From positions 325,526-389,525 of the forward strand of contig VXSP01000045.1 in NCBI GenBank assembly GCA_009837885.1: 64,000 nt of DNA. Reading direction: 5' to 3'. The notes below the pieces were generated by a model. That model was not told where the DNA came from. It did not search any database and saw only the letters and a list, made by a program, of their open reading frames with translations. The position numbers were made by a program, and so were the translations under genes. Below, one piece after another: positions 21,457 to 57,262 of this stretch. Position 1 is the first letter of the stretch. Every line of letters begins with the position of its first letter. The DNA is from Holophagales bacterium. Lineage in GTDB: Bacteria > Acidobacteriota > Thermoanaerobaculia > Multivoradales > Multivoraceae.

Positions 21457-21484
21457 ACTGGGTGCGCCGGCGTCCTCGCCGGCC
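21457..21484 (+). repeat. REP-like conserved hairpin copy A (ACTGGGTGCGCCGGCGTCCTCGCCGGC)
   Basis: Stem GCCGGCG/CGCCGGC with 4-nt loop. Near-identical to copies at 43719 and 57235. Confidence 0.5.
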
Positions 21485-21505
21485 TCTTGAGGATCGTGCG
21501 AGGCG

Positions 21506-22366
21506 CTAGCCTCGCTCCTTTGCGAATGCGACTGTGCCGCGCAGCTCTTCGTAGGAACTGTGACCCGTCGCCGGTTTCACGATCCGCTGCCACTCTCGAT
21601 CCCAGACCTCGAGGACTTCGCGCGGTACTTCACGGGAGCCTTCTCCCGACTTTCCCTTGCGGACCTTTGTTGTGGTGCCGGAGGCGGGGAGGCCGCAGGG
21701 GGCGTTTCGGGCGTTGCGGACCAGGTGGTCGTCGAACTTCGAGCTGTGTTCGCGCATGAAGCCGATTGACGCTTGCCGGGTCGCGATCTCGATGTTGGGG
21801 TGCTCCGGGTCGAGCTTGAGGAACGCCGCGACGCGGGCGGTGGCGGCGGGGAGGTCGGCGACGATGTCCTCGAAGCAGAGCCAGAGGGTCTCCGGGTCCA
21901 GGCGCTCCGGCCACCAGGACACGAGGTGTTCCCAGTAGCGGCCGCTACGGGTGCCGTGGAAGATGAAGTCGAGGGCGAAGTCGCGGATCGAGACGGTCCC
22001 GGGCTCGAACACCCAGCCGCTGAAGAAGTGGAAGAAGGAGACGAGCGAATCGACCGGGTCGCGGACGACGAAGATGTTGCGCCCACCTTTCGGTGCCAGT
22101 TCCCGGCTCAGGTGGGTCTTGAACGCTCTGGGCTCGGCCCGCTGGTGTGCGTCGAGGTCGAGGCCGATGTCGTGGGCGACTTCGAGCCAGGGGACGACTT
22201 CCGTGATCTCGTCGAAGTCCATGTCGCCGCCGGTGCGGAGCCCGTGGACGATCTGCTGCATCAGGGTCGTGCCGGCCTTGGGATAGGTGGCGATCAGGAT
22301 GTCGCTGGGCCGCAGACTGAAGTCGAGACCGCGCCGTACTCCTTCTCGTGTGGCGAAGCCGGCCAT
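21506..22366 (-). CDS. Sulfotransferase family protein
   Basis: PAPS-binding motifs YPKAGTTL and RDPVDSLVS are present. ATG at 22366. An alternative GTG at 22426 overlaps the exoIII stop (GTGA). Confidence 0.75.
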   Translation of the reverse strand: MAGFATREGVRRGLDFSLRPSDILIATYPKAGTTLMQQIVHGLRTGGDMDFDEITEVVPWLEVAHDIGLDLDAHQRAEPRAFKTHLSRELAPKGGRNIFVVRDPVDSLVSFFHFFSGWVFEPGTVSIRDFALDFIFHGTRSGRYWEHLVSWWPERLDPETLWLCFEDIVADLPAATARVAAFLKLDPEHPNIEIATRQASIGFMREHSSKFDDHLVRNARNAPCGLPASGTTTKVRKGKSGEGSREVPREVLEVWDREWQRIVKPATGHSSYEELRGTVAFAKERG

Positions 22367-22422
22367 GCGCCGCCTGATGCCCTCGACCGTAGTGGCCCGG
22401 TGAGGCGTCACGGCGCTGTCGC

Positions 22423-23232
22423 TCACCCGAGTACCTCGGCCGAAAGGTCGACGCCGACCGGGCAGTGGTCCGAGCCGGTCACGTGCGTCAGGATGAACGC
22501 CCGCTCGACGAAACGCATCGCGGCCTCCGAGGCGAGCACGAGGTCGATCCGCCAGCCGACGTTGCGCTCGCGGGCCTGGAAGGCCTGCTTCCACCAGCTA
22601 TAGCGCACCGTGTCGGGGTGCAGGGTCCGGAAGGTGTCGATCCAGCCGGCGTCGAGCCAGCGCTGGACCTCGTCGCGTTCCTCCGGCAGGAAGCCGGAGT
22701 TCCTCGCGTTGTCCTTCGGGCGCGCCAGGTCGATCGGCTGCGGCGCCGTGTTGAAGTCGCCGATGACCAGGACGCGATAGCCGGCGGCGCGGGCCTGGTC
22801 GAGCTGGGCGAACAGGGCGCGGTAGAAGCCCAGCTTGTAGGGCACGCGGCTGTTGTCTCGCTTGCTGCCGCTGCCCTTCGGGAAGTAGACGTTCGCCACC
22901 AGCAGTTGGCCGAAGAGAGCCAGTTGCAGACGGCCCTCGGCGTCGAAGCGCGGTTCGCCGAGCGAGGTGCGGACCCAGGCCGGCTCCAGGCGGGAGTAGA
23001 GGCCGACGCCGGAGTAGCCTGGGCGCTCGGCGCTCGAGAAGGAGGTGTGCCAGCGCGTGGGCCGGCGAAGCTCCGGCGCCAGTTGCCCGGCGCGGGCCTT
23101 CGTTTCCTGCAGGCCGACGATCTGAGCCCGGCTCTTTCCCAGCCAGTCGAGGAAGCCCTTGCGCCCGGCGGCGCGCAAGCCGTTCACGTTCCAGGAGACG
23201 ACGCGGATGCGACGGCGCTTCCGGGGGCTCAG
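22423..23232 (-). CDS. xth: Exodeoxyribonuclease III
   Basis: The full ExoIII core runs from RIRVVSWNVNGLRA to DHCPV. The track start (GTG 23187, VNGLRA) truncates the conserved N-terminus. There is no canonical start upstream; CTG at 23232 overlaps the GNAT TGA stop. Confidence 0.75.
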   Translation of the reverse strand: MSPRKRRRIRVVSWNVNGLRAAGRKGFLDWLGKSRAQIVGLQETKARAGQLAPELRRPTRWHTSFSSAERPGYSGVGLYSRLEPAWVRTSLGEPRFDAEGRLQLALFGQLLVANVYFPKGSGSKRDNSRVPYKLGFYRALFAQLDQARAAGYRVLVIGDFNTAPQPIDLARPKDNARNSGFLPEERDEVQRWLDAGWIDTFRTLHPDTVRYSWWKQAFQARERNVGWRIDLVLASEAAMRFVERAFILTHVTGSDHCPVGVDLSAEVLG

Positions 23233-23852
23233 GTGCGGCTCCGCTTCCCGGCGCCCAGGTCGTAGGACATGATCATCATGTCGCGGGTGCGCCCGGAGCG
23301 GTCGATGACCCAGTCGGTGAGCAGCGCCTCGGGCGAGAACCCGAGGCGCTCGAACACCCGGCGTGCTCCAATCTGCTCACGCGTCATCTGCGCTACCAGC
23401 TTGAGCAGACCCAGCTCTCTGGCCGTCTCGAACACCCGCTCGGTCAGCACGTGGCCGAGCCCGCAGCGGCGATGGGCCTCGGCGATGATCACGCGGATCT
23501 CGCCGAGGTGACTCATCCAGTGCAGGCCTCGAAGGTTCAGGCTGCCGTAGCCCACCAGCTCGCCTTCGTAGTGGGCCAGGGTAGTGAAGCGGCTGCCGGT
23601 GTCGGCGTCGTGGATCCATCCCTCCACCACGTCCGGATCGGTCAGGTCCGAGCGCAGGAACTGGAGGTCGATCTCGGGCAGGGCGCTGGCGAGCGAGACG
23701 ATGTCGTCCCGGTCGGCAGGGCGCAGGCGGCGCAGGTCGTAGGTGCGATCGCCGCACTGGACCTGGTCGACGGATTGGGTGCTCACGGGCCGCTCGGTCG
23801 TGCCCGGGTGGCGCGGCCGCGCCACCCGTGCCCCAGTCCGCGCGCCCGTCAT
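23229..23852 (-). CDS. GNAT family N-acetyltransferase
   Basis: Acetyl-CoA binding region RRCGLGHVLTERVFETARELG. ATG at 23852. Confidence 0.7.
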   Translation of the reverse strand: MTGARTGARVARPRHPGTTERPVSTQSVDQVQCGDRTYDLRRLRPADRDDIVSLASALPEIDLQFLRSDLTDPDVVEGWIHDADTGSRFTTLAHYEGELVGYGSLNLRGLHWMSHLGEIRVIIAEAHRRCGLGHVLTERVFETARELGLLKLVAQMTREQIGARRVFERLGFSPEALLTDWVIDRSGRTRDMMIMSYDLGAGKRSRT

Positions 23853-23938
23853 TGGGTGCGCGGATGGCAACCTGCAAAGCTAGCAGGTTCGCCGTCGGGT
23901 ATCGTCGCGCGCGAACGGAATCAGGGAGGGCGGGAGAA

Positions 23939-25018
23939 ATGGCTCCGATACCGAAGGGCGGGACGGTCGCGGTGACGGGTAGCGCCGGCTTTGTCGGCGG
24001 CTGGGCGGTTCGGCTGCTACTGGACAAGGGCTACCGGGTGCGTGCATGCGTGCGCGACGCCAACGACCCCGGGAAGACGACCTTCCTGCGGGAGATGCCG
24101 GGTTACGCCTCCGGGCGCTTGACGATCCACTCGGCGAACCTGGACGAGCCGGGCTGCTTCGACGAGATCTTCGCCGGTTGCCACGGCGTGGCTCACATCG
24201 CCCACGTCAGCGACTACAACGACTTCGACTACGTGAAGAACGTGTGCGACCACATCGTCGAGAGCGTCGAGAAGTCGGGTTCGGTGACCCGCGTGGTCGT
24301 TACCTCGAGCATCGCCGCCGTGATCATGGAGGCCGACATCTACGAGTTCGTTCGGCGGCCGGTCCTGTACGAGGACCGCTACCCGGACGAGTCCAACCCG
24401 AAGCGGACGCCCGAGCGCGGTCACGGCTATTCGATGAGCAAGATCTACGCTCAGCAGGCGTTCACCAGGGCCGCGGAGAAGAGCGGGCGCTGGGACGCGA
24501 TCACCTGCTGCCCGGGCGACAATGTCGGCCCCATCCTGTCGGCGCACCAGAAGGAGAAGGGGCCCTGGCAGCACAACATCGAACTGATGCTGCTGGGCGA
24601 GTGCAAGCAAAACCAGGCCTACCGGCCGTGGATGACGGTCGATGTGCGTGATGATGCGGAGTGCCACATCCGGTTGCTTGAGAGCATCAGTGTCCGGAAC
24701 GGCGAGCGGTTCATCGCGTGGTCCGCGGACGCGGTGCCGGTGGAGGAGATCAACGCCGGCATCGATCGCCTGCTGCCCGAGCTCCGCCATGACACGCCCG
24801 CGATCACGGAAATCCACCCCGACCACATACAGAAGCGCGAAGAGGAACTGCGAGGCATCTGGGCCGGTGTCGAACTGCGCAACGACCGGATGCGGGCGGC
24901 TACGGGCGTCAGGTTCCGGCCGTTCGACGAGTCCCTGCGTGACTGCGTCGAATCGCTGATCTCAGTTGCCGGGGTCGAACCGCAACGGCGGCCCGAGGTG
25001 GACGCCAGCGACGGCTAG
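23939..25018 (+). CDS. NAD-dependent epimerase/dehydratase (SDR extended family, cinnamoyl-CoA-reductase-like)
   Basis: ATG at 23939 with AGGGAGGGCGGGAG upstream. VTGSAGFVGGWAV Rossmann motif. YxxxK is present. Confidence 0.8.
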   Translation: MAPIPKGGTVAVTGSAGFVGGWAVRLLLDKGYRVRACVRDANDPGKTTFLREMPGYASGRLTIHSANLDEPGCFDEIFAGCHGVAHIAHVSDYNDFDYVKNVCDHIVESVEKSGSVTRVVVTSSIAAVIMEADIYEFVRRPVLYEDRYPDESNPKRTPERGHGYSMSKIYAQQAFTRAAEKSGRWDAITCCPGDNVGPILSAHQKEKGPWQHNIELMLLGECKQNQAYRPWMTVDVRDDAECHIRLLESISVRNGERFIAWSADAVPVEEINAGIDRLLPELRHDTPAITEIHPDHIQKREEELRGIWAGVELRNDRMRAATGVRFRPFDESLRDCVESLISVAGVEPQRRPEVDASDG

Positions 25019-25071
25019 ACGCCCTACAGACGAGAAGGTCGCCGTCGACCGCTTTCTGATGTCCCGCGCGG

Positions 25072-27418
25072 TCAATCTTCGTTCCCGCTCTCGATCTCGT
25101 TGTCGCCACCGTTCTCCTTCTGCTTCACGGTAAGCGGCCAGCCGTCGAACTGAGTACTGGCGGCGCCTTCTGAAGCAGGGAAGCGGAAGGCCTCGAGCAA
25201 GTAGGTCTTCGCCGTCGTGTCGATCGTGACCAGACCGAAGCCGCTGCCCCTGTTGCGCGCTGTGACGTAGCGGTCCGTCGCCTCCAGCTCGGTCCCCGGA
25301 TTGGCGACGGCATAGACGTACATGTAGTTGCCGAAACCGTCTCGGTACTCGCCGGTGTTGGCCCGCTCGTGACTCGGCCGGTTGGCCACCGTGAACCAGT
25401 TCGTGTGCTCGTCCGGCCGCCACCAGCGCACCCAGCCGGTGCTGATCGCAGGCGTGCAGAACGCCCAGCAACTGTCGCGTTGCGCGTCGGCGCCGTACTG
25501 GATCAGGGACGGCAGGTGCAGATCGCCGCACACATGCAGGCACTTCGCCGTCTTCAGGATGCGCACGAGGCGGTTCCGCGGCGTCTGGGGCCAACTGCTG
25601 CTGTCGGATGGCCCGGATGAAGTTGTGGCGGGCCCCGTGGTGCGTCGCCGCCGCGGCGAACAGCGTCTGGCTGAGGAGGACTTTCATCGCGTGGCCGTTT
25701 CGGTCGGTGGACCAGGCGGCCAGGAAGTCCTCCTGCCGCCGGCCGAGCAGGTGGAGGCCAGGCGCGTCCAGCGTGGCCGTGTCGATGCTGTCGTCGTACA
25801 CGTGGTCTCGCGGGCCGACACCGGTGTTCACGCGCTCGGGGCCGCTCTTGAACTGGCGGTCGCCGACGATCGCAAAGCTGACGTTCCCGTAGACGAGGTC
25901 GCCGTAGTAGACGCTGATGCCCCGATTGGCCGGCCTCGAGTCGTAGGGGTCGGGATGATGAGATGTATGCGTGTGGTGGACCACGTTGACCATCCGTACC
26001 GGCTCGATGTAGCCGCCGTTCGAGGACGGGTTCTTGCCGGCGCCCATCGCGTTGCCGCTCTCGCCCCAGAGGTTTCCCTGGAAGACGTCGTGGTCGTCCG
26101 GGATGCACACCGTCGGCCGGTCCCGCATCGCCTCGCGAAAGGCCCACCCGAACATGTAGAACTTGCGCAGGTAGCTCAGGATCGCCAGCGACGCCGGGTT
26201 CCGAACGATGCCGTAGCCGCCGTTGTCCTCGTAGACCTGATCGCCCGAGAAGAACAGGAGATCGGGGTCCTTCTCCGCGACCTCCCTGGCGAGCGGGACG
26301 TAGGGGAAGGAGTAATCCTTCTGGCAGGTGAGCGCGGCGAGTTTCATCGACCCGCCCGTCGGATTCGCCCGGATCGTGCCTTGCCACTCGTGGATCGTCT
26401 CGGAGCCGTCCGCGTGGCGCTCCCGGTACGCGAACCGGTACGGCGTTGCCGTCGTTTGGTCCCAGTTCGCCAGTTTGAAGGTGGCCGTGTACGCGTCCGG
26501 GTTGAAGTCGACGAAGCCGTGGGATCGCCAGTTGCCGCTCCGCTGCGTGAGAAGCTCCACGCGCCGGTCGTCCTGAGCGCCCAGTGGAGGCAGGATCGCT
26601 GTCAGCTTGACGACGAAGCCCTCGGCCCCGCGCGTGTCGTCCAGGGTGTACATGGCCCACAGGACCGCCCCGAACCGGCGGTCCATGTTGACTTCGAAGG
26701 CGCTGCCGCTCGCCTTCCAGTCGCTGAAGCGATAGCGGCCGCCCTGTCCCTCCTGGATGGTGCGGTCGAAGTTGCTGACGATGGCGACGTTGCCGGCGAT
26801 GTTGGCCGCGGCCACCGAGTGGGTGACCGTGCCGAGTTCGGTGCCGGCGGCTGACAGCGCCTTCAGTGTGAGATCGGTCATGCTGCCGGTGCCGGGCGCT
26901 CCGCTCAGGATCAGGACGACGCCGTCATTGAAGGGGCCGGCGATCGTCGAAGTGGCCGTCCCCAGCGTCAGGCTCCCGTTGATCAGGCCGGCGATCATTC
27001 CGCCAGCGCGTACGAAGCAGTTGCTCCGATAGTCGTCGATGGCGTGGCGAATGCCGATCCGGAACCCCGCGCCGCCGTCCATCGCGCCGGTCTTCACGCG
27101 CCGGCAGTGGACCGACATCTCGAAGCTCCCGGTCGAGGTCAGCCGATGGGTGAGCAGGTGAACGCTGCGGTCGCCGGAGTCCCTCCGCGTCTCGGCGCCG
27201 CCGTTCACGACGCTCCAGTCCTCCATGGGATTGGCCCAGAAGGACTCGCCCAGCCAGACCCGGTCGCGGGTCTGATGCCACTTGTCGACCCGCGTGGTGT
27301 CGGAAGTGGATTGCTGCTCGCGCTGCTGCCTGGCGTGGGCGGGCCTGATCCGTTTCGGCAGGGAGACGATGGCCGCCAGCAGGCCGAGGAGTCCGCGTCG
27401 ACTGAGGCTGTACTTCAC
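25072..27418 (-). pseudogene. TAT-secreted PhoD-like phosphodiesterase/alkaline phosphatase with an apparent frameshift near 25566–25640
   Basis: N-terminal TAT signal MKYSLSRRGLLGLLAA. PhoD-like metallophosphatase motifs (FFSGDQVYEDN, IPDDHDV). The homologous reading continues in a different frame (track ORF 25072..25566: CLHVCGDLHLPSLIQY...). Either a real disruption or an assembly indel. Confidence 0.55.
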
Positions 27419-27665
27419 GATGGGCCTCGACTATTCCTTTTCGAACGAGAAGCCACGCCCCAGTCGCCCTTCACGTTACACTATTTCTTGTGAAAATTTG
27501 GTGAGTTGGAGGGGTGCTACGTGATTTTTTGGCGACTTACCGAGTGTACCTGTGGGGTTTTGTCCTCGTCGTCCGCGTCGTGATGGGTAACGTTGTCTTT
27601 GTGTTCGGCCTGGCGGAGGAGTAGGGTCCGGGCAGGTCGGCGCGAACCGGGCGGAGGTTTCGGAG
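27419..27665. promoter_or_regulatory. Divergent promoter region (PhoD-like / TonB receptor) containing 16-nt direct repeats
   Basis: Locally AT-richer. GTGAAAATTTGGTGAG at 27489..27504 and GTGATTTTTTGGCGAC at 27521..27536, start-to-start spacing 32 nt. Confidence 0.4.
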
Positions 27666-30275: not shown

Positions 30276-30341
30276 GCTACGGCTACTGCTGCCGCTTGGC
30301 GGGTTGTGGCTCGGGCGGCGACGGGTGAGTCGGTCTCGCGT

Positions 30342-33506: not shown

Positions 33507-33514
33507 CGTCGGCC

Positions 33515-34807: not shown

Positions 34808-34850
34808 GAGATCGTCGTTTCTTTCTGGTCTGACGGTTCTTCCGCGTCGT

Positions 34851-35882: not shown

Positions 35883-35885
35883 CTG

Positions 35886-42420: not shown

Positions 42421-43706
42421 GCGGATCGCTGGTGATTCGGGGGGGCCGGGTTGTCGATCCGACCCAGGAACTCGACGGCGCGGCGGACGTCCTGATCGAG
42501 GGCGGCAGGGTGACGGCCTGCGGACCCGGTCTCGCGGCGCCGGAGAACGTGCGCGAGTTCGACGCCGCGGGGTTGGTGGTCGTACCCGGCCTGATCGACA
42601 TGCACGTCCACCTGCGCGAGCCGGGCCAGGAGTACAAGGAGACGATCGAGACCGGCACCCGCGCGGCGGCGTCGGGCGGGTTCACCGCCGTCGCCTGCAT
42701 GCCGAACACGGACCCGGTGAACGACGATCCGTCACTGACCGAGTTCATGCTCAAGCAGGCGGAGCGGGCGGGCTGGACTCGTGTGTACCCGATCTCGGCG
42801 GTCAGCCGGGGGCTGGAGGGCCGCGAGTTGACGGAGTTCGGGGCGCAGCGGCGGGCCGGCGCGGTAGCGGTCTCGGACGACGGCCATCCGGTCTGGAGCG
42901 CCGCCCTGATGCGCCAGGCGCTGCGATACGCCCGGCACTTCGACCTGCCGGTCATCCAGCACGCCGAGGAACTCGCACTCTCGGGCGACGGGGTCATGCA
43001 CGAGGGACGCTTCTCGACGCGGCTCGGCGTCGAGGGGATCCCCGGCGCCGCGGATGACGTGATGGTCTCCCGCGATCTGCTCCTGACCGCTGATACGGGG
43101 GGCCGCTACCACCTGGCGCACATGTCGACCGCGCGCAGCCTGGACCTGATCCGGGCCGCCAGGGCCGATGGCCACCGGGTCACCTGCGAGGTCTCGGCCC
43201 ATCACCTGCTGCTGACGGACGAGGACGTCTTCGACTCGGGGCTGGACCCGAACTTCAAGATGCATCCGCCGCTCAGAACCGCCGGCGACCGCGACGCCCT
43301 GGTCGGGGGCCTCGCCGATGGTTCGATCGACGCGATCGCGAGCGATCACGCCCCCCACCATCCGGACGAGAAGGAGCTCGACTTCGTCGCCTCGCCGAAC
43401 GGCATCGTCGGGCTCGAGACGACGCTCAGCCTCTGCCTGGACCGGCTGGTGAGGAAGGGCGTGATCGACATGGCGCGCCTCGTCGACCTGCTGTCGACGG
43501 CGCCCGCGAGGATCCTCGGCGTGCCTGGGGGCAGCCTCGCGCCCGGTTCGCCCGGCGACGTGACCCTGATCGACGTGGAGCGCGAGGTCGAAGTCGATCC
43601 GGCGACGTTCCGGAGCAGGTCGCGGAACACGCCGTTCGCGGGCTGGGAGCTTCGCGGCGCGCCGGCCGGCACCGTCGTCGGCGGTCGCGTGATCGAGCTG
43701 CCGTAG
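42417..43706 (+). CDS. pyrC: Dihydroorotase
   Basis: [10 protein letters not shown] metal-binding motif, amidohydrolase fold. GTGA overlap with the pyrB stop. Confidence 0.9.
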
Positions 43707-43718: not shown

Positions 43719-43747
43719 CACTGGGCGCGCCGGCGTCCCCGCCGGCA
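43719..43747 (+). repeat. REP-like conserved hairpin copy B (ACTGGGCGCGCCGGCGTCCCCGCCGGC), 13 nt after the pyrC stop
   Basis: Same 27-nt element as at 21457 and 57235. Stem GCCGGCG/CGCCGGC. Confidence 0.5.
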
Positions 43748-43784
43748 TCCGGAGCGAAGCGACGGGCTCTGGGTGTCCGCTGAA

Positions 43785-44591
43785 CTACCCGATACTCCGC
43801 CCGCCGTCGATGTCGAGGCAGACGCCGGTGAGAAAGGCCGCGTCGTCGGAGGCGAGGTAGGCGACGGCGGCGGCCACGTCGGCCGGTTCGGCGAGTCGGC
43901 CCAGCGGGATCGTCTTCTGAAGGACATCGCGTCCCGATGCGTCCAGCTTCCGTCCCCCCGAGGGGCCCTTCATGAAGTCGGTGTCGGCGGCGACGGGGTT
44001 GACCGCGTTGACGCGGATGCCATGAGGCGCGAGTTCAGTCGCCAGTCCCCGGGTCAGTGTGATGACCGCCCCCTTCGTCGCGTTGTAGGCGGTGATCAGC
44101 GGTCGCGGGCGGACGGCGCCGATCGACGCCGTGTTCACGATCACCCCGCCTCCGCGCTCGAGCAGCCGCGGCACGCCGTGCACCACGCCCAGATAGACGC
44201 TCTTCGTGTTCACCTCGAAGACCCGGTCGTAGTCGGCCTCGGCGAGCTTCCAGAGGGGCCGGGCCCGGTGGCAGTAGCCCGCGTTGTTGACGAGGATGTC
44301 GATGCCGCCGAACGCGCCGCAGGTCCGCTCCATCAGCCGCCGCACGTCGTCGCCCTTCGATACGTCGACCGTCTCGAAGAGGACCCTGGCGCCGCGCTTT
44401 GCGAGCTGGGCCGTGGTCCTCTTCCCCTTGCCTGAATCGATGTCCGCGAGCGCGACGGCCGCGCCTTCTTCGGTGAGCCTTCGTGCGATGGCGCGGCCGA
44501 AACCGCCGGCCGCGCCGGTCACGACCGCGACCTTTCTCGCGAACCGGGAAGTGGCTGTCGCGCTGTCGTTCTTGCTGTTCGAGTCGTTCAT
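43785..44591 (-). CDS. SDR family short-chain dehydrogenase/reductase
   Basis: TGAAGGFG Rossmann motif, NNAG, YNATK catalytic motif. Confidence 0.85.
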   Translation of the reverse strand: MNDSNSKNDSATATSRFARKVAVVTGAAGGFGRAIARRLTEEGAAVALADIDSGKGKRTTAQLAKRGARVLFETVDVSKGDDVRRLMERTCGAFGGIDILVNNAGYCHRARPLWKLAEADYDRVFEVNTKSVYLGVVHGVPRLLERGGGVIVNTASIGAVRPRPLITAYNATKGAVITLTRGLATELAPHGIRVNAVNPVAADTDFMKGPSGGRKLDASGRDVLQKTIPLGRLAEPADVAAAVAYLASDDAAFLTGVCLDIDGGRSIG

Positions 44592-47250: not shown

Positions 47251-47260
47251 CGGGAGAAAC

Positions 47261-47950: not shown

Positions 47951-48021
47951 GTTCTGTCGCGAAGCCTCCTGGCGAGGTGGGGGCTGGGGGCCAAACAGCG
48001 AGCCTGCGAGCGGTTTGGCGG

Positions 48022-48816: not shown

Positions 48817-48971
48817 GCGCCTATTCTAATGGGCCGCAGGACGGTTGCACCGGGGTTCTTCTCGCCGTACGGCCCGTTTCCTTGACCGCGATAGGGGCGG
48901 GTGTTAGCTTCCGCGCGATTCGTGGCCCGGCCGGCCCTTGAGGGCACAGCCGCCCTATCTCCAGGCCCTCG

Positions 48972-50432
48972 ATGGCACAGAGTCAGGACAACACTCAGGA
49001 ACCCGTCGCCGGGCGTGCGCCGCTGATCGTCGGCGGTTACGACTTCCGTTCCCTGACGGAAGCGGTCGCGGTGCCGGTCGAGCGCAAGACGCCGATCGGC
49101 TGGTGGTTCTTCTTCCTGCCGTCGCTGGCGATGCTGGGCCTGTTCGGCGTTTCGATCGGCTGGCTGTTCTGGGAGGGCACCGGCATCTGGGGCCTGAACA
49201 ACCCGGTCAACTGGGGCTTCGCGATCGTCAACTTCGTCTTCTGGGTCGGCATCGGCCATGCCGGCACGTTGATCTCCGCGATCCTCTTCCTGTTTCGGCA
49301 GAAGTGGCGCACGTCGATCAACCGCGCGGCGGAGGCGATGACGATCTTCGCGGTCATGTGCGCCCTGGTCTTCCCGGGAATCCACGTCGGCCGCGTGTGG
49401 GTCGCCTACTGGATGTTCCCGCTGCCGAATCAGATGGACATGTGGCCGAACTTCCGCAGCCCGCTGATCTGGGACGTGTTTGCGGTGTCGATCTACGGCA
49501 CGGTGTCCCTGATGTTCTGGTACGTGGGCCTGATCCCGGATCTCGCGACGATCCGCGACCGCGCCAAGACGCGGATCAAGCAGATCGCCTACGGCATCTT
49601 CGCTCTCGGCTGGCGCGGTTCGCACCGGAACTGGCTCCACTACGAGCGGGCCTACCTGATGCTGGCCGGTCTGGCGACGCCGCTGGTTCTCTCCGTCCAC
49701 TCGGTCGTGTCGATGGACTTCGCCACCGCCCAGTTGCCGGGCTGGCACACGACGATCTTCCCGCCGTACTTCGTCGCCGGGGCGATCTTCTCAGGCTTCG
49801 CCATGGTCATGACCCTGATGCTGATCTGCCGGGTCCTGTTCAAGATGGAGGACATCATCACGATGCGCCACCTCGAGAACATGGCCAAGATCATGCTGCT
49901 GACGGGGTGCATGGTCGGTTACGCCTACGGCATCGAGATGTTCATCGCCTGGTACAGCGGCAACCCGTACGAGCAGTTCGCCTTCGCCAACCGGGCCCTC
50001 GGGCCCTACGCCTGGGCCTACTGGATCATGGTGAGCTGCAACGTGCTCACGCCGCAGTTGTTCTGGTTCAAGAAGATGCGCAACCACATCGGCTGGCTGT
50101 TCATCTCCTCGATCCTGATCAACATCGGCATGTGGTTCGAGCGTTTCGTCATCGTCACCTCGTCGCTGCACCGCGACTTCCTGCCCGCGAACTGGGACTA
50201 CTACCAGGCGACCTTCTGGGACTTCGCTTCGCTGATCGGCAGCTTCGGCCTGTTCTTCACGATGTTCTGCCTGTTCGCCCGGTTCCTGCCGCTGGTGGCG
50301 ACGGCGGAGGTCAAGACCGTGCTGCCGGAGGCCGACCCGCACCAGGGCGAGGAACTGGTGCGCGTGGTGCCAGCCGGCTCCGGAGTGGAACCCGCGCCGC
50401 AGGCGGCGCCGGCCGGCGGGGGAGGGTCCTGA
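48972..50432 (+). CDS. actC: NrfD/PsrC-family polytopic membrane protein, alternative complex III ActC-like
   Basis: 486 aa, about 10 TM, NrfD-like profile. Followed by DUF3341 and a second NrfD-like gene, as in act operons. Confidence 0.6.
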
Positions 50433-50433
50433 C

Positions 50434-51042
50434 ATGGGCCTGATGACCCTGGACGTGCCGGAAGCGTCGGCGGGTTACAGCCACTACGGTGTGCTGGCCC
50501 GCTTCGAAACCGCGAAGGCGCTCTACCGGGCCTGTGAGGCGGTCCGGGACGCCGGCTACTCGAAGTGGGACGCGCTGACGCCGTTTCCGGTTCATGGTCT
50601 CGAGAAGGCGATGGGGCTGAAGCCGTCCAGGCTGCCGTTCCTCGTGCTGGCCACGGGACTTTCCGGCGCCGGGCTCGGCTTCGCCCTGCAGAGCTGGGTC
50701 CACATCAAGGGCTACCCGCTGATCATCAGCGGCAAGCCGCTGTTCACCTGGCCCGCCTTCGTGCCGGTCACCTTCGAGCTCGGAGTGCTCGGCGCTGCGC
50801 TGGGGGCGGTGCTCGGCATGTTCGCCTTCAACAAGTTGCCCACCTACCACCATCCGCTCTTCCGGTCGAAGAACTTCGCGCGCGTGACGGACGACGGTCT
50901 GTTCATCGCCATCGAGGCCTGGGATCCGAAGTACGACGACCAGGACACCGCGGAGTTCCTGAGCAGGCTCGGCGCGGTCGAGGTGGAGCACGTGCCGATC
51001 GACGATCCCGCGGACGACGGTGACGGGGGAGGCGCCGCCTGA
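50434..51042 (+). CDS. actD: DUF3341 membrane protein, ACIII ActD-like
   Basis: 202 aa. Soluble N-terminal part followed by 2 TM. Position between the two NrfD-like genes. Confidence 0.55.
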   Translation: MGLMTLDVPEASAGYSHYGVLARFETAKALYRACEAVRDAGYSKWDALTPFPVHGLEKAMGLKPSRLPFLVLATGLSGAGLGFALQSWVHIKGYPLIISGKPLFTWPAFVPVTFELGVLGAALGAVLGMFAFNKLPTYHHPLFRSKNFARVTDDGLFIAIEAWDPKYDDQDTAEFLSRLGAVEVEHVPIDDPADDGDGGGAA

Positions 51043-52277
51043 TGGCCCACGGACCGCGCATCGTTCATCTCGATCAATTGGTCATCCGGCCGGGCAGCGG
51101 CTGGGCGCGCCTGCCTTTGATCGCGGGCGCGGTCGGCGTCGTCTTCACGGTCGTGTCGATCGTGCTGGCGATGGGGTCAAAAGAGAGCACCAAGCAGTTC
51201 TTCCACTCCTGGCTCGTCGCCGTCGTCTTCTTCCTCTGCATCGGTCTCGGCTGCCTGTTCTTCGTGCTGATTCACCACGCGACGAAGGCCGGCTGGGGCG
51301 TCGTGGTGCGCCGTCTGGCCGAGAACCTGGCCTGCACGGTGCCTGTGCTGGCCGTCCTGTTCATTCCGGTCGTGGCCCTGGGCATGTACGACCTGTTCCA
51401 CTGGACCCACGCCGACGCCGTGGCGCACGACCGGTTGCTGCAGGTCAAGGAACCGTGGCTCAACGAGACCGGCTTCTGGATTCGGACCGTCATCTACTTC
51501 GTGATCTGGAGTGGGCTGGCCCTCTACTTCCGGAACGCGTCGCGGCGCCAGGATGACAGCGGAGACGAGGCCCTTTCCCACCGGATGGCGCGATTCAGCC
51601 CCGTCGCGGTCGCCATGTTTGCCGTGACGCTGACGTTCGCCGGTTTCGACTGGCTGATGTCGCTGGAGCCGCACTGGTACTCGACGATGTTCGGCGTCTA
51701 CTTCTTCGCCGGTACGGTCGTCTCGGCGTTCGCGGCGCTTACGGTCCTCACCCTGGCCTTCGAACGGTCGGGCCACTTCCGGGGCGTGATCACCGGCGAG
51801 CACTTCCACGATCTCGGCAAGCTGCTGTTCGCCTTCACGGTCTTCTGGGCCTACATCGCCTTCAGCCAGTTCTTCCTCATCTGGTACGCGAACATCCCGG
51901 AGGAGACGAACTGGTTCCTGAGCCGGCTGCACGGCACGGCCGACAATCCGGCGAACTGGCGCCCGGCGACCCTGCTTCTGGCCATCGGCCACTTCGCCGT
52001 CCCGTTCTTCTTCCTCATGCCCCGGACGATCAAGCGCAACCGCACCCTGCTGCTGATCGGCGCCCTCTGGATGCTGGCCATGCACCTCTGGGACGTGTTC
52101 TGGCTGGTCATGCCGAACCTGCACCGGGAGATGACGTTCTCCCTGCTCGACCTGACCTCGCTGCTCGGCGTGGGCGGCGTGTTCCTGGCAACCGCGGGCT
52201 GGCTGCTGGGCCGCGGCTCGCTGGTGCCGTCCCGCGATCCGCGGCTGGTCGAGTCGCTGGCCTTCGAGAACATCTGA
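51042..52277 (+). CDS. actF: NrfD-like membrane protein, ACIII ActF-like (quinone-binding subunit 2)
   Basis: 411 aa polytopic. TGATG overlap with actD. No cytochrome c (ActE) gene lies between. Confidence 0.55.
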   Translation: MAHGPRIVHLDQLVIRPGSGWARLPLIAGAVGVVFTVVSIVLAMGSKESTKQFFHSWLVAVVFFLCIGLGCLFFVLIHHATKAGWGVVVRRLAENLACTVPVLAVLFIPVVALGMYDLFHWTHADAVAHDRLLQVKEPWLNETGFWIRTVIYFVIWSGLALYFRNASRRQDDSGDEALSHRMARFSPVAVAMFAVTLTFAGFDWLMSLEPHWYSTMFGVYFFAGTVVSAFAALTVLTLAFERSGHFRGVITGEHFHDLGKLLFAFTVFWAYIAFSQFFLIWYANIPEETNWFLSRLHGTADNPANWRPATLLLAIGHFAVPFFFLMPRTIKRNRTLLLIGALWMLAMHLWDVFWLVMPNLHREMTFSLLDLTSLLGVGGVFLATAGWLLGRGSLVPSRDPRLVESLAFENI

Positions 52278-52396
52278 GACGTTCAGGGGCCCTCCCAGTC
52301 CGTCAGCCGTTCGCCTTGTTCAGTCCGCCGGTCCTTGCTACGCTGCGCACCGTCTCAGGACCTCTTGCAACACCTCTCCCGTCAAGGAGCATCGAC

Positions 52397-53113
52397 ATGA
52401 TTCCGAAGCAGACGATTCGCGTCTGTGCCGTTCTTCTCGCCTTCGCCCTGGCTTCCTCCTCGGTTGCGCTCGGCGGCACGATTGTCGGCAAAGTCACGTA
52501 CGAAGGCCGGACGCCCCCGCAACGCCCGATGAGGATGGACGCGGACCCCAAGTGCGCCGAGAAGCACAGTGGCACGGTCCTCGACCAGACCTTCATGATC
52601 GGGGATGGCGGCGCCTTCGCCAACGTCTTCCTGGTGATTACCGAGGGCCTGGACGGGAAGTCGTTCGACACGCCTTCGCAGCCGGTGGTCATGGACCAGA
52701 ACGGCTGCATCTACACGCCACGCGTCATGGGCATCCAGGTCGGGCAGCAGTTCAAGGTGAAGAACTCGGACGGCCTGCTGCACAACGTCCACTCCCTGTC
52801 CAAGGACAACCCCCCGTTCAACCGGGCGATGCCGGCCAGCGTGACGGAGGCCGACTACAGCTTCGACAAGACGGAGCGCTTCCGCATCAAGTGCGACGTC
52901 CACCCCTGGATGACGTCCTGGGTGACGGTCGTCGATCATCCGTTCTACGCGGTTTCGGGCGCCGACGGCAGTTTCCGCATCGAGAATGTTCCGGCCGGCA
53001 CCTACACGATCGAGGCCCGGCATGAGTTCGAGAGGTTCAGGATCTACTCGGAGACCGTCGAGGTCGGCGACAGTGGCGAAGCGACGGTGAACTTCGTCTT
53101 CAAGCCGGAGTAG
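52397..53113 (+). CDS. Cupredoxin (amicyanin-like type-1 copper) protein, paralogue 2, secreted
   Basis: ATG at 52397 with AAGGAG SD. Signal peptide. LHNVHS ... CDVHPWM ligand set. Same architecture as 48022..48816. Confidence 0.55.
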   Translation: MIPKQTIRVCAVLLAFALASSSVALGGTIVGKVTYEGRTPPQRPMRMDADPKCAEKHSGTVLDQTFMIGDGGAFANVFLVITEGLDGKSFDTPSQPVVMDQNGCIYTPRVMGIQVGQQFKVKNSDGLLHNVHSLSKDNPPFNRAMPASVTEADYSFDKTERFRIKCDVHPWMTSWVTVVDHPFYAVSGADGSFRIENVPAGTYTIEARHEFERFRIYSETVEVGDSGEATVNFVFKPE

Positions 53114-53154
53114 ACGAGGCAACCCCAGAAAGTAGCTAGAAAGGAGCGGCGTCC

Positions 53155-54912
53155 ATGGCGGAGCCCGTTCACGCTTCACCTGCACACGACGAGCATCACC
53201 ACGAGCAGAGCTTCTGGCGGAAGTACATCTTCTCGACCGATCACAAGGTGATCGGCGTCCAGTACTCGGTCACGGGTCTGGCGTTTCTCCTCTTCGGGTT
53301 CGTCCTGATGATGGTGATGCGCTGGAACCTCGCCTACCCGGGCGAGCCGATTCCCTTCATCGGCTCGCTCCTCGGCGAGAACCGGGCGCCCGGCGGCATC
53401 ATGCTGCCGGACTTCTACAACGAGCTCGGCGCCATGCACGGCACGATCATGGTGTTCCTGGGGGTCGTGCCGCTGGCGGTCGGCGGCTTCGGCAACTTCG
53501 TCATGCCGCTGCAGCTCGGCGCCCCGGACATGGCCTTCCCGCGGATCAACATGATCAGCTACTGGTGCCTGTTCCTGGGCGGCGTGACGATGTTCGCCAG
53601 CTTCTTCCTGCCGAACGGCGCCGCGGGCAACGGCTGGACCTCCTACTCGCCGCTGGCCGACATCGCGCTGAACGGCCAGACCGCCTGGCTGATCGGGATG
53701 ATCTTCCTGATCACGTCGTCCCTGCTGGGCGCGGTCAACTTCATCACCACGGCGATCCAGCTCCGGGCTCCGGGCATGACCTGGATGCGACTGCCCTTCT
53801 TCTGCTGGGCGCAGATCGTGACCGCCTTCCTCCTGCTGCTGGCCTTCCCGCCGCTCGAGGCCGCGGGCGTGCTGCAGTTGATGGACCGGGTCGCGAACAC
53901 CAGTTTCTTCATTCCGGAGGGCCTGGTGGTCGGTGGCGAAGTGGTCGACCGGAGCGGAGGCGGCAGCCCGCTGCTCTGGCAGCACCTGTTCTGGTTCCTG
54001 GCCCACCCGGAGGTCTACGTGCTCATCCTGCCGGCGATGGGGATCGTCGCCGAGGTGATCGCGAACAACTCCCGCAAGCCGCTCTGGGGTTACCGCTCGA
54101 TGGTCTACTCCCTGATCTTCCTCGGCTTCATGAGCTTCATCGTCTGGGCGCACCACATGTTCATCACCGGCATGGGCTCGGTGATGTCGACCTTCTTCCA
54201 GACGACGACGATGATCATCTCGATCCCGTCGGTCATCATCCTGAGCGCGCTCTTCATCTCGCTGTGGGGCGGTTCCATCCGCTACAACACGCCGATGCTG
54301 TTCGCGCTCGGCTTCCTGCCGATGTTCGGCATAGGAGGGCTGACCGGGCTGCCGCTCGGTCTCTCGGCGGCGGACATCCCGCTCCACGACACCTACTACG
54401 TGATCGGGCACTTCCACTACGTGGTGGCGCCCGGAACCCTGTTCGCGCTGTTCGCCGGCGTCTACTACTGGTTCCCCAAGGTGACGGGGCGCAAGATGAA
54501 CGAGTTCCTGGGCAAGCTCCACTTCTGGCCCTCGCTCGTCTTCATGAACGGGGTTTTCTTCCCGATGATGATCCAGGGCCTGAACGGCGTATCGCGCCGG
54601 CTCGCCGACGGCGGCATCACTTACGACTTCGCGGGCGAGGTCGCCGGGCTGAACCGGATGATGTCGGTTTCGGCCTGGTGCCTGGCGGTGGCGCAGATTC
54701 CGTTCATCATCAACTTCTTCATGAGCATCCGGAACGGCGAGAAGGCCGGACGCAACCCCTGGAACTCGACCACCGTCGAGTGGCTGGCGCCGTCGCCGGC
54801 TCCGCACGGCAACTTCGATCAGCCGATCGAGGTTGTGCGCGGGCCGTACGAGTACAGCGTCCCGGGTAGCGACAAGGACTACGTCCCACAGGCCGAACCG
54901 GCCTCAACCTGA
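53155..54912 (+). CDS. coxA: Cytochrome c oxidase subunit I (heme-copper oxidase, A-type)
   Basis: AAAGGAG SD. Canonical CuB/heme ligands are readable (WAHHMF, GHFHYV). 12+ TM, 585 aa. Confidence 0.95.
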   Translation: MAEPVHASPAHDEHHHEQSFWRKYIFSTDHKVIGVQYSVTGLAFLLFGFVLMMVMRWNLAYPGEPIPFIGSLLGENRAPGGIMLPDFYNELGAMHGTIMVFLGVVPLAVGGFGNFVMPLQLGAPDMAFPRINMISYWCLFLGGVTMFASFFLPNGAAGNGWTSYSPLADIALNGQTAWLIGMIFLITSSLLGAVNFITTAIQLRAPGMTWMRLPFFCWAQIVTAFLLLLAFPPLEAAGVLQLMDRVANTSFFIPEGLVVGGEVVDRSGGGSPLLWQHLFWFLAHPEVYVLILPAMGIVAEVIANNSRKPLWGYRSMVYSLIFLGFMSFIVWAHHMFITGMGSVMSTFFQTTTMIISIPSVIILSALFISLWGGSIRYNTPMLFALGFLPMFGIGGLTGLPLGLSAADIPLHDTYYVIGHFHYVVAPGTLFALFAGVYYWFPKVTGRKMNEFLGKLHFWPSLVFMNGVFFPMMIQGLNGVSRRLADGGITYDFAGEVAGLNRMMSVSAWCLAVAQIPFIINFFMSIRNGEKAGRNPWNSTTVEWLAPSPAPHGNFDQPIEVVRGPYEYSVPGSDKDYVPQAEPAST

Positions 54913-54932
54913 CCGTTCGAGGACCTCAAGAG

Positions 54933-55532
54933 ATGGAAATCCCCTACACGGTAGAGGCCCACCCCGAAACCGGCCTCAACAACGGGAAGATCGGGATCTG
55001 GCTGTTCCTGACCTCGGAGGTCATGCTGTTCGGGGCGTTGTTCGCCACGTTCATCATGCTGCGCCTGGGATCGGACGGCAACTGGGCCGCGATGCAGGCG
55101 GAAGCGGAGCTCAACATTCCGCTGGCGACGCTCAACACGGCCGTGCTGATCGCCTCCAGTCTGACGATGGTCATGGCCTGGGCGTCGCTGATGCGCGGGC
55201 AACTGGGCCGGTTCAAGCTGTTCGGCTGGCTGACCGTCGCCTGCGGCGGCGTCTTCTTGGTCATCAAGTACTTCGAGTACACGGCGAAGTTCGAGCACCA
55301 CCACTACCCGGAGTCGAGCACCTTCCTCGCCATCTACTTCGCGATGACGGGCCTCCACGCCCTGCACGTGATCGGCGGCATGGCCTGGAACGCCTACTTC
55401 ACCGGGCCGGGGTCGAAGCTTTTCCACACGAACCGGCAGTGGCTGACCGACCGGGTCGAGCACTCCGGTCTGTTCTGGCACTTCGTCGACCTGGTCTGGA
55501 TCTTCCTCTTCCCCGTCTTCTACCTGCTGTAG
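54933..55532 (+). CDS. coxC: Cytochrome c oxidase subunit III (short 5-TM form)
   Basis: 199 aa. Conserved subunit III motifs are present (IWLFLTSEVMLFG, WHFVDLVW). Confidence 0.85.
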   Translation: MEIPYTVEAHPETGLNNGKIGIWLFLTSEVMLFGALFATFIMLRLGSDGNWAAMQAEAELNIPLATLNTAVLIASSLTMVMAWASLMRGQLGRFKLFGWLTVACGGVFLVIKYFEYTAKFEHHHYPESSTFLAIYFAMTGLHALHVIGGMAWNAYFTGPGSKLFHTNRQWLTDRVEHSGLFWHFVDLVWIFLFPVFYLL

Positions 55533-55584
55533 CGGACATCTGCCGCCCTGAATCCCTGGTCTACCCTGGAGCGAGTCGCATTCC

Positions 55585-55914
55585 ATGAGTGAACACGTCG
55601 ATATCGACAAGCAGGTCCGCGTCTACTTCCTGGTTTTCGGCGCCCTGATGGTGGGTACGCTCGTCACGGTTCTTGCGGCGGAACTCGATGTTTCGGTGCC
55701 GGTGGCCCTCACCATCGGCCTGTTCATCGCCACCGCCAAGGCGTCGCTGGTCGCCTGCTTCTTCATGCACCTGATCGACGAGAAGAAGATCATCTACTGG
55801 ACGCTGGCCCTGACCGTCGCGTTCTTCATCGCCCTGATGGCGTTGCCGCTCCTGACCTCGGTAGCGGACCAGGTAGGGGAGTTCGCCGAAGTCGAGGCGC
55901 ACGAGCCGCACTGA
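55585..55914 (+). CDS. Cytochrome c oxidase subunit IV (prokaryotic CoxD/CtaF-like)
   Basis: 109 aa, 3 TM, in the typical position after subunit III. Confidence 0.6.
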   Translation: MSEHVDIDKQVRVYFLVFGALMVGTLVTVLAAELDVSVPVALTIGLFIATAKASLVACFFMHLIDEKKIIYWTLALTVAFFIALMALPLLTSVADQVGEFAEVEAHEPH

Positions 55915-55933
55915 CGATCCCGCTGAACGCGTC

Positions 55934-56407
55934 ATGAACCTGAAGGTCATTCACATCGTCTTCGTCGGCAGCGCCATTCTCCTGGCGCTGTTCTTCGGCG
56001 GCTGGTGTCTGGCGCAGGGGAGCGCGTTCGCGGTGGGCGCCGTTCTTTCCTTCGCGGTCGCGGCTGCGCTCGTCTGGTACGGCATCTGGTTCTGGCGCAA
56101 GATCACGACGCCCGAAGAGGAGTGGGCTCGCCGGCGCAAGCTGTTCCGCACGATTCCCGTTGCCGTGGTCGTCTGGCTCTTCGCCTCCGAGCCGGCGGCC
56201 TGGGCCTGCTCGGTCTGCTACGGGGCCGCTGAAGGGTCGATGATCGACGCGGCCCGGGCCGGGGTGTGGTTCCTGCTGGCGGCCGTGTTCGTGATGCAGG
56301 GGGCCTTCGTTCTCTTCTTTCTCTATCTCCGGCGCCGTGCCCGGCGTCTGCGAACCGACCCGGTGCCGCCCTGGTGGAGCACCGTTGAGGAGCCTGTCAA
56401 GTCATGA
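55934..56407 (+). CDS. Hypothetical 4-TM membrane protein with a CSVCYG motif, embedded in the oxidase operon
   Basis: 157 aa hydrophobic ORF. The CxxC sits at a TM boundary. ATGA overlap with the coxB start. Confidence 0.45.
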   Translation: MNLKVIHIVFVGSAILLALFFGGWCLAQGSAFAVGAVLSFAVAAALVWYGIWFWRKITTPEEEWARRRKLFRTIPVAVVVWLFASEPAAWACSVCYGAAEGSMIDAARAGVWFLLAAVFVMQGAFVLFFLYLRRRARRLRTDPVPPWWSTVEEPVKS

Positions 56408-57207
56408 TGGATGCCATGTTCCCGGCCGCGGCGTCGGAGCACGCCGGCCGGATCGACAACATGATCGACGCGGTGCACTACCTGATGCTCGCGCTCTTCA
56501 TCGTCTGGGGCGTGTTCTTCGTGTACGTGCTGATGCGCTTCCGCGCCAGCCGCAACCCGAAGGCGGACTACGTCGGCGTCAAGAGCAAGATGAGCACTTA
56601 TGGTGAAGTCGCCGTGGCGATCGCGGAAGGGATTCTCCTGCTCGGCTTCTCGATTCCCATGTGGGCGGAACGGGTGGACGAAGTGCCGCCGGAGTCCGAG
56701 GCGACGGTCGTGCGGGTCGTGGCGCAGCAGTTCGCGTGGAACGTCTGGTATCCGGGGGCCGACGGCGAGTTCGGCGCGCAGGACCTGTCACTGATAGACG
56801 AGGCGACCAATCCGATCGGCCTCGACCGCGACAGCGAGGCCGGCGCCGACGACATCTGGACGGTGAACCAGTTGCACCTCCCGGTCGACAAGGCGGCGAT
56901 CATCCACCTGACGTCCAAGGACGTGATCCACAGCTTCAACCTGCCGAACATGCGGATCAAGCAGGACACGATCCCGGGCATTTCGATTCCGGTCTGGTTC
57001 GTTCCCACCAAGACCACCGCCCAGATCCGCGAAGAGACCGGAAACCCGGACTACGTCTACGAGATCGCCTGCGCCCAACTCTGCGGCAACAGCCACTACT
57101 CGATGCGCGGCTTCCTGACCGTGCACACCGAGGAGGAGTTCCAGGCCTGGCTCGACGAGGAGGCGTCCTACCTCACCGGCAGCGACGACGACTTCTTCGA
57201 CTTCTAG
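56404..57207 (+). CDS. coxB: Cytochrome c oxidase subunit II (CuA), without a fused cytochrome c domain
   Basis: 2 N-terminal TM helices. CuA ligands are present (HSF...CAQLCGNSHYSM). The protein ends soon after CuA, so this is an aa3-type rather than caa3-type subunit. Confidence 0.9.
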   Translation: MMDAMFPAAASEHAGRIDNMIDAVHYLMLALFIVWGVFFVYVLMRFRASRNPKADYVGVKSKMSTYGEVAVAIAEGILLLGFSIPMWAERVDEVPPESEATVVRVVAQQFAWNVWYPGADGEFGAQDLSLIDEATNPIGLDRDSEAGADDIWTVNQLHLPVDKAAIIHLTSKDVIHSFNLPNMRIKQDTIPGISIPVWFVPTKTTAQIREETGNPDYVYEIACAQLCGNSHYSMRGFLTVHTEEEFQAWLDEEASYLTGSDDDFFDF

Positions 57208-57234
57208 GAGCCTGGCCGCGAGGCCGGTTCCTTC

Positions 57235-57262
57235 ACTGGGTGCGCCGGCGTCCCCGCCGGCT
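57235..57262 (+). repeat. REP-like conserved hairpin copy C (ACTGGGTGCGCCGGCGTCCCCGCCGGC), 28 nt after the coxB stop; flanked by 18-nt direct repeats
   Basis: Same element as copies A and B. Flanking GGCCGCGAGGCCGGTTCC (57214..57231) and GGCCGCAAGGCCGGTTCC (57290..57307). Shared downstream GCTCTGGGTGTmCGCT with copy B. Confidence 0.5.

Follow-up and report, generated by a model that had tools for sequence, protein, structure and literature searches.

A 64,000-nt stretch of a Holophagales bacterium genome (Acidobacteriota; contig VXSP01000045.1 of assembly GCA_009837885.1, positions 325,526 to 389,525), which comes from a sponge metagenome contig and is called the window below, carries three copies of a short G+C-rich hairpin element. 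These copies most plausibly form part of an atypical family of repetitive extragenic palindromic (REP) sequences and bacterial interspersed mosaic elements (BIMEs), probably spread by an enzyme of the REP-associated tyrosine transposase (RAYT) type that acts on single-stranded DNA. We file them with REPs and BIMEs because they match these in anatomy, in the number, placement and arrangements of copies, in being gained and lost, and in having no excess of flanking repeats. The link to RAYTs also draws on a one-base variant of the element, which flanks RAYT genes and occurs in Thermoanaerobaculia. We call the family atypical because its foot is not GTAG.

The 27-mer ACTGGGYGCGCCGGCGTCCYCGCCGGC matches the window without mismatch at 21457-21483 (copy A), 43720-43746 (copy B) and 57235-57261 (copy C), always on the + strand. 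There is no fourth match in the window when up to three mismatches are allowed, and 100 shuffles gave no match at all. Written out, the copies read ACTGGGYGC followed by GCCGGCG-TCCY-CGCCGGC, i.e., a 7-bp stem (GCCGGCG/CGCCGGC) closed by the 4-nt loops TCCT, TCCC and TCCC in copies A, B and C, respectively. A preliminary description of this DNA had reported three copies on the + strand, each with this stem and a 4-nt loop; the sequences of all three bear this out, with the start of copy B moved from 43719 to 43720. The C at 43719, directly 5' of the 27-mer, is conserved and part of the motif. The core of copy A (21457-21483) consists of the single-stranded head ACTGGGTGC (21457-21465) and the hairpin GCCGGCG-TCCT-CGCCGGC (21466-21483), that of copy B (43719-43746) of the head CACTGGGCGC (43719-43728) and the hairpin GCCGGCG-TCCC-CGCCGGC (43729-43746), and that of copy C (57234-57261) of the head CACTGGGTGC (57234-57243) and the same hairpin as in copy B (57244-57261). 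A covariance model of head and hairpin, run with filters off, scored them at 49.8, 49.7 and 49.8 bits. The next-best match in the window is intragenic and reaches 16 bits; since all other scores are at or below this value, the window holds exactly three copies. None has an inverted partner, so all three are singletons. Two short-read contigs of the window's species (L118 and L119) break off within copy B or right before it, which is what a multi-copy repeat would lead one to expect.

Extent and structure of the repeat family

We scanned one genome per species with the pattern CTGGGNGC-GCCGGCG-NNNN-CGCCGGC, which at least 116 genomic loci match. These loci fall into two classes. The T-class, the kind present in the window (cACTGGGTGC and the hairpin), was recovered from at least 22 species-level genomes, and among the matches listed every one of these bears an Acidobacteriota label; its hosts are Thermoanaerobaculia, Candidatus Multivorans and "Holophagales", mostly metagenome-assembled genomes (MAGs) from sponges. 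The A-class (CTGGGAGC, i.e., cCTGGGAGC and the same hairpin) is one base off the T-class, is mostly arranged as inverted doublets, and was found in 21 genomes among the matches listed, from Verrucomicrobiota, Planctomycetota, Sumerlaeota, proteobacterial MAGs and non-sponge Acidobacteria. The family had been proposed to be genome-specific. This did not hold: the same 26-mer is found in at least 22 acidobacteriotal species and its one-base variant in other phyla. Viral contigs gave only one match, so the family is not phage-borne.

In 633 kb of T-class loci, picked for holding at least one copy each, the covariance model found about 145 intact copies (at least 37 bits) and about a dozen decayed ones. 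Once the seed copy of each locus is discounted, this amounts to about one T-class copy per 10 kb in the loci versus one per 21 kb in the window, and extrapolation from the density of the loci suggests a few hundred T-class copies per genome. In L082, six or more T-class heads, some of them with the compensatory stem GCCGGCC/GGCCGGC, form an array (3788-4121) right next to a tRNA gene (3840-3912).

Across the family, neither the foot CTGGG-GC nor the first stem pairs vary, and the loop is pyrimidine-rich in every member. Four of the seven stem pairs are changed on both sides, with complementary variants such as GCGGGTC/GACCCGC, GCCGGCC/GGCCGGC, GCCGACG/CGTCGGC, GCGGACC/GGTCCGC and GATGGCG/CGCCATC. 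All cells are paired in the true register (100%) versus 24-56% when the 3' partner is slid, a percentage that is circular because the variants were gathered with a complementarity filter. Variant hairpins of this complementary kind behind CTGGGNGC number about 25, against about 0.4 that we estimate to be expected by chance. The element is thus the palindrome of some 20-40 nt, forming a stem-loop with compensatory variation, that characterises REPs.

Behind the core, the family carries interchangeable modules made of smaller hairpins. Type I modules (consensus AT-CCGGCGC-GAA-GCGCCGG-CYTCYGGA) are represented by 29 copies and type II modules (T-GCCGCC-GNA-GGCGGC-CAGG..ACGCG-CCGGCC-GNNA-GGCCGG) by 33; type III modules follow the consensus YTTCTGAGGAAACGYG-CGAGGCC-GNAG-GCCTCG-CTCC. 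The three copies in the window carry three different types: copy B a degenerate type I, copy C a type II and copy A a type III. Among the triloops of these modules, 113 of 166 read GNA on the head strand, so the structure is strand-specific. C-GNA-G loops are classic, very stable DNA mini-hairpins. Four genomes also hold head-to-head T-class doublets with a fixed spacing of 51 nt (L016, 6997-7073; L059, 7842-7918; L081, 5727-5803; L100, 1014-1090). Their 25-nt spacer (…GTGTGGACCGTCGACGGAGTTGCAGA…) is similar across the four and holds the palindrome CCGTCGACGG, and such doublets with a conserved spacer may be a distinct composite unit.

Placement, gain and loss

T-class copies are largely intergenic (115 of 142, or 81%). 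This placement, together with three copies in 64 kb and about 145 in 633 kb of selected loci, is that of the high-copy, dispersed extragenic elements known as REPs. The gene upstream has the same sense in 90 of 112 cases, with the element at a median distance of 26.5 nt from its stop. Singletons lie between convergent genes 39 times and between divergent genes four times (p = 3e-8); between co-directional genes they are sense in 28 cases and antisense in 10 (74% sense; p = 0.005). The family is thus REP-like and placed at gene 3' ends, as the preliminary description had it. The orientation of T-class copies correlates with gene strand (rho = 0.31, p = 0.003) and is uncorrelated with local GC skew (rho = -0.03, a weak test in 8-kb pieces). 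TAG stops are modestly enriched beside the elements (55% versus 35%, p = 0.002). As for arrangement, 106 of the 142 copies are singletons, and the others include seven tail-to-tail pairs, five head-to-head pairs and nine tandem arrangements.

The suspicion that the element might be mobile is supported by filled and empty orthologous sites in related genomes, identified at junctions found by all-against-all comparison of the loci (L003/L004, L008/L071 and L075, L113/L083, L094/L064, L107/L054 and L114/window). The inserts are about 70-110 nt long, have ragged ends and in some cases sit precisely in the interval from a stop codon to the following start codon. The window itself holds an empty site of about 25 nt at 59736-59760, where two genes overlap and a short remnant, GCGGCAG..CCCGCGGC, resembles the outer stem of the element; the orthologous convergent junction of Candidatus Multivorans sp. 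OZ242040.1 (L114) is filled by a type I T-class element some 90 nt long. The ortholog of copy A is conserved in a relative with 90% identity (L074). The direct repeats that flank T-class copies vary in length and are not longer than in the control. A few are long, that of copy C included, and these represent duplicated modules or partial neighbouring elements.

In all these respects the family resembles the REP, BIME and REPIN (inverted REP pair with a short spacer) systems of Escherichia coli, Pseudomonas and Stenotrophomonas, which are associated with RAYTs (TnpA-REP, of the Y1 HUH type). They share a short G+C-rich stem-loop with a conserved single-stranded 5' foot, many dispersed extragenic copies, chiefly at the 3' ends of genes, that are gained and lost between relatives, an occurrence as singles, inverted doublets and clusters in mosaic with other small motifs, and the absence of flanking repeats in excess of the control. 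A search of the literature for the repeat sequence itself gave nothing relevant. The T-class is a previously undescribed, ordinary member of the bacterial REP repeats already known, with properties that hold nothing unexpected for the specialist.

RAYT transposases and alternative explanations

The A-class provides the tie to transposases. In an Opitutus MAG (L031), a Y1_Tnp gene (PF01797, E = 2.4e-10; tblastn with E. coli RayT, E = 5e-11) with the motifs NHVH and YIHQNP has A-class doublets (CTGGGAGC and the same hairpin) on both sides, the arrangement called a "REPtron" in REP systems. A second RAYT (L130) has A-class flanks arranged in the same way at the DNA level. The family of the Opitutus RAYT has 7,073 members at E <= 1e-10, and reading frames run into A-class repeats in 28 of its best 120; the consensus of the family contains repeat-encoded peptides, PGSAGVPAG...ADEDVGAP, at both ends. 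A-class doublets also occur directly past stop codons in non-sponge Thermoanaerobaculia, the class that includes T-class hosts.

Two further observations concern these genes. In L130 (2868-6816), the A-class-flanked RAYT lies directly behind, and slightly overlaps, a MmeI-type restriction-modification gene. Several RAYTs of the L031 family bear the JGI name "type I restriction enzyme R subunit/putative DNA methylase", a name that seems to reflect either a wrong annotation or a gene neighbourhood that recurs.

The motifs of the A-class-associated RAYT are those of TnpA-Y1 subclass 2.6 (Bertels group 5), whose key motifs are NH[LIV]H and YIH[QN]NP and whose genes stand between non-GTAG structures that recur in other parts of the genome (Quentin et al. 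2018, PMC6006769). This assignment is by motifs and not by phylogeny, and the subclass, unlike the family described here, has been described mainly in Bacteroidetes (PMC6006769). TnpA-Y1 class 3, with "atypical secondary structures", has genes in Acidobacteria and about 600 associated hairpins in Solibacter (PMC6006769), but its Y....Q motif and CnGA foot were not seen here.

Taken together, we picture the unit as a single-stranded foot, (c)ACTGGGTGC, a 7-bp G+C hairpin with a pyrimidine tetraloop and interchangeable small-hairpin modules, in a BIME-like mosaic. The head strand, as single-stranded DNA, would be recognised by a Y1/HUH transposase of the RAYT type, which, reading the foot and the stem base, would cut and rejoin there with no target duplication. 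The surviving copies would be those that landed just past stop codons. There, the mRNA of the upstream gene would end with the transcribed element, whose very stable stem-loops could protect this end or hinder read-through between convergent genes; the copies may thus have a secondary role as stable 3' stem-loops.

Several observations weigh against this reading. In canonical REPs the tetranucleotide GT[AG]G is conserved on the 5' side of the hairpin foot, at a distance of 0-2 nt (PMC6006769, PMC3733652), and it is absent here: the foot is CTGGG(T/A)GC, the T-class CTGGGTGC ending in GTGC and the A-class in GAGC. T-class copies are mostly singletons rather than REPIN doublets, with 12 inverted pairs against 106 singletons in the family and none but singletons in the window. 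REPs have been described as species-specific (PMC6006769), whereas the T-class 26-mer is nearly identical across species whose flanks diverge by 10-18%, and the A-class variant crosses phyla; such identity is unusual for REPs and could instead mean selection for a host function. An orientation linked to gene strand is not predicted by a purely replication-fork-targeted mechanism. Lastly, a cognate RAYT flanked by the same repeats was seen for the A-class and not for the T-class in the sequence searched. Searches by tblastn with the E. coli and Opitutus RAYTs on all loci, and a six-frame scan for the HUH...Y motif, gave no RAYT or Y1 gene beside any T-class copy, either in the window or in T-class loci totalling 0.8 Mb. 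When metagenomes were scanned for a T-class head behind a RAYT C-terminal motif (AACCCNGT-N{45,75}-CTGGGTGCGCCGGCG), nine loci came up, none with a RAYT, and T-class-encoded peptides occur in none of 268 RAYT-family proteins. Two candidate traces of this kind, a match in P0221 and a "DAGAPS" peptide in P0112, were rejected as A-class variants. That the loci lack a RAYT says little because there is about one such gene per genome; we nonetheless infer, rather than observe, that a RAYT mobilises the T-class, because none turned up beside a T-class copy.

The most serious alternative, which we consider possible although clearly less probable, is that the repeats are host-selected RNA elements of 3' untranslated regions, now independent of any transposase. 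In the mRNA, the conserved foot UGGGUGC and the pyrimidine-loop hairpin would serve to bind an RNA-binding protein, an RNase or a termination factor, or to direct processing by it. They would mark or shield 3' ends in a lineage where intrinsic terminators are few. The sense bias between co-directional genes, the short distance past stops and an orientation that tracks gene strand rather than GC skew are all consistent with this, as are a 26-mer that hardly varies in at least 22 species, the low number of decayed copies, the retention of the copy A ortholog, the strand-specific loops, canonical terminators that are not enriched in the regions of the copies, and a transposase not found near T-class copies. 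A selected RNA signal accounts poorly, however, for the quarter or so of copies between co-directional genes that are antisense, for the head-to-head, tail-to-tail and tandem arrays, for the gain and loss at orthologous sites with ragged ends, for neighbouring genes without coherence, and for the one-base variant that demonstrably flanks RAYT genes. GNA triloops closed by C-G are moreover a hallmark of stable DNA mini-hairpins and not of RNA motifs. The two explanations are partly compatible, since known REPs have such secondary roles too.

A related and more doubtful proposal is that the T-class has become a domesticated, sequence-specific 3'-end signal across a sponge-symbiotic clade of Acidobacteriota and no longer depends on a transposase. 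A dedicated host protein would read the UGGGUGC foot and the UCCC-loop hairpin on the transcript or on the displaced non-template strand, and would set mRNA 3' ends or insulate convergent genes, while the GNA-loop hairpins would stop exonucleases. Such a signal is compatible with a 26-mer that is almost the same in at least 22 species, with the sense bias and the few decayed copies, and with a cognate RAYT that the searches did not find.

It is improbable that the copies are non-canonical factor-independent terminators, i.e., G+C hairpins working without a U-tract. Their stable 7-bp all-G+C stems do lie directly past stops and between convergent genes, in regions where canonical terminators are scarce. 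But no copy is followed by a T-run, the invariant 9-nt single-stranded foot and the conserved loop are unneeded for termination, some copies are antisense or form arrays, the genes on either side of copy C run in the same direction with the next start 74 nt away, and folding of the three regions gives z-scores of just -1.2 to -2.9. A terminator scan did not report any of the three sites, and terminator-like sites were no more frequent in these regions than in shuffles. The copies, for which a terminator family had also been suggested, are not canonical terminators because no T-run stands 3' of the hairpin: the hairpins run into CTCTTG, ATCCGG and TGCCGC.

The weakest candidate, a miniature inverted-repeat transposable element (MITE) of a DDE-transposase insertion sequence, with the 27-nt head and hairpin as terminal inverted repeat and the singles as half-elements left by deletion, is very unlikely: seven tail-to-tail pairs of 100-150 nt have their heads outermost (L016, L018, L034, L090 and L111), CTAG or TAG often stands at both edges, TAG stops are in excess, and direct repeats flank a few copies (15 nt in L054, 9 nt in L015, 17 of 18 positions at copy C), but 106 of 142 copies are single, the flanking repeats are variable in length and no longer than in controls, head-to-head pairs and tandem arrays exist, none of the loci showed a DDE transposase with these ends, and the related A-class flanks Y1/HUH and not DDE genes. 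Bacterial MITEs such as Correia, ERIC and RUP are likewise small, non-coding, dispersed, hairpin-forming, often found at gene ends and co-transcribed; they have terminal inverted repeats and a fixed TA duplication, unlike the copies here, which are mostly single arms without duplication.

No known RNA family accounts for the copies either. Rfam gave no match in the window at gathering thresholds and, at relaxed thresholds, nothing for copies A and B; related loci likewise yielded no family. Copy C was compared with Acido-1 (RF01686), an RNA of Acidobacteria with two hairpins and a linker with ACU...GGGUG before a GCGGCG/CGCCGC stem. Together with the hairpin upstream, copy C aligns over the entire model, yet it is not a member: it scored 14.5 bits against a gathering threshold of 50 (E = 0.93), and the match was not reproduced in other T-class copies, in 58 kb at relaxed and 138 kb at gathering thresholds.

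Modules, neighbouring genes and other features of the window

The gene calls used here, made by codon statistics, agree with those supplied with the source contig. Copy A lies 230 nt past the stop of a glutathione S-transferase-like gene on the + strand (end at 21226) and 22 nt before the stop (21506-21508) of a convergent sulfotransferase-like gene on the - strand. Its type III module (21484-21518, +) comprises the linker CTCTTGAGGATCGT, the hairpin GCGAGGC-GCTA-GCCTCGC (21498-21515) and TCC, and the same pattern stands behind heads elsewhere, e.g., in L016, L018 and L087. The TAG of the sulfotransferase-like gene (CTA at 21506-21508 on the + strand) falls in the loop of this second hairpin and its last codons in the 3' arm, such that the hairpin encodes the last three to four codons (…ERG*); the same is found in the relative that conserves copy A (L074).

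Copy B lies 13 nt past the TAG of pyrC (+ strand, end at 43706), and its core and module occupy the whole 78-nt gap between this stop and the TAG of a convergent short-chain dehydrogenase gene (CTA at 43785-43787, - strand). Its degenerate type I module (43747-43783, +) consists of AT, the hairpin CCGGAGC-GAA-GCGACGG with two mismatched pairs (43749-43765) and the tail GCTCTGGGTGTCCGCT (43766-43781). Copy C lies 27 nt past the TAG of coxB (+ strand, end at 57207), in front of a Gfo/Idh/MocA-type oxidoreductase gene on the + strand whose ATG, at 57336, is 74 nt from the core. Of the two distances to stops given in the preliminary description, that to pyrC (13 nt) stands and that to coxB (28 nt) is 27 nt by our measurement. 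All five stop codons facing the three copies are TAG.

The type II module of copy C (57262-57328, +) begins with T and the hairpin GCCGCC-GGA-GGCGGT (57263-57277), followed by the linker GAGGAAACGT; its second part (+) comprises the hairpin ACCGGCC-GCAA-GGCCGGT (57288-57305), CTAT and the tail GCTCTGGGTGTACGCT (57313-57328). It stops 7 nt short of the ATG, and blastn matches to L115 and L072 span 57234-57329. Upstream of the core, a further module (57214-57231, +) consists of the hairpin GGCC-GCGA-GGCC and GGTTCC and is probably the tail module of a partial neighbouring element; type II elements of L026, L104 and L085 likewise have GGCCGGTTCC behind their third hairpin. This upstream module is the first of the two 18-nt direct repeats that had been noticed around copy C. 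They are indeed present, at 57214-57231 and 57291-57308, with 17 of 18 positions identical, and represent an accessory hairpin module present twice rather than a general target-site duplication. A motif that copies B and C had been said to share downstream was likewise recovered, as the 16-mer GCTCTGGGTGTMCGCT at 43766-43781 and 57313-57328. It resembles a degenerate second head and was rejected as a part of the family: it occurs only at these two copies and is absent from the family in other genomes.

A second repeat family is present in the window at 21221-21455 (+), where it takes up the whole space between the glutathione S-transferase-like gene and copy A. It is a conserved, highly structured non-coding element of about 230 nt, with a long interrupted outer helix in which GGGGTCAGCTCCCAGGTG (near 21246) pairs with CACCTGGGAGCTGACCCC (near 21385) around the conserved core GCGCTCGCTCCaCTCCgCTCGCTCCGGTTGGGCGTCGG. 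By nhmmer, the T-class loci hold 14 copies, three of them in L097 and two in L074, and in several loci a T-class head follows on the same strand. RNAalifold gave compensatory changes in 19 of 51 pairs, and Rfam gave no match. Either a larger mobile hairpin element or a non-coding RNA in several copies could account for it.

A tRNA-Arg(CCG) of 97 nt called by ARAGORN at 22636-22732 (-) is probably a false positive: it lies inside an exonuclease III-like gene (22423-23187), and the Rfam tRNA model finds no tRNA in the window. Unusually long gene-free stretches are found at 9283-9762 (480 nt), 61971-62543 (573 nt) and 765-1117 (353 nt). The first holds two perfect 8-bp hairpins, GACCCGCC-GAGA-GGCGGGTC (9402-9421) and GGGGCTCC-CTCG-GGAGCCCC (9481-9500), which are unrelated to the REP family and have no Rfam match at gathering thresholds.

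The T-class repeats explain breaks at gene ends in short-read assemblies of the symbionts, as well as the repeat-encoded last codons and stop codons of some of their genes. With an atypical CTGGGWGC foot in two variants that differ by one base, one of them tied to a RAYT family of more than 7,000 proteins, they offer a natural system for how a RAYT reads the foot. The combination of sense bias and conservation across species makes the family a reasonable test case of whether a function at the 3' ends of mRNAs keeps REPs in place.

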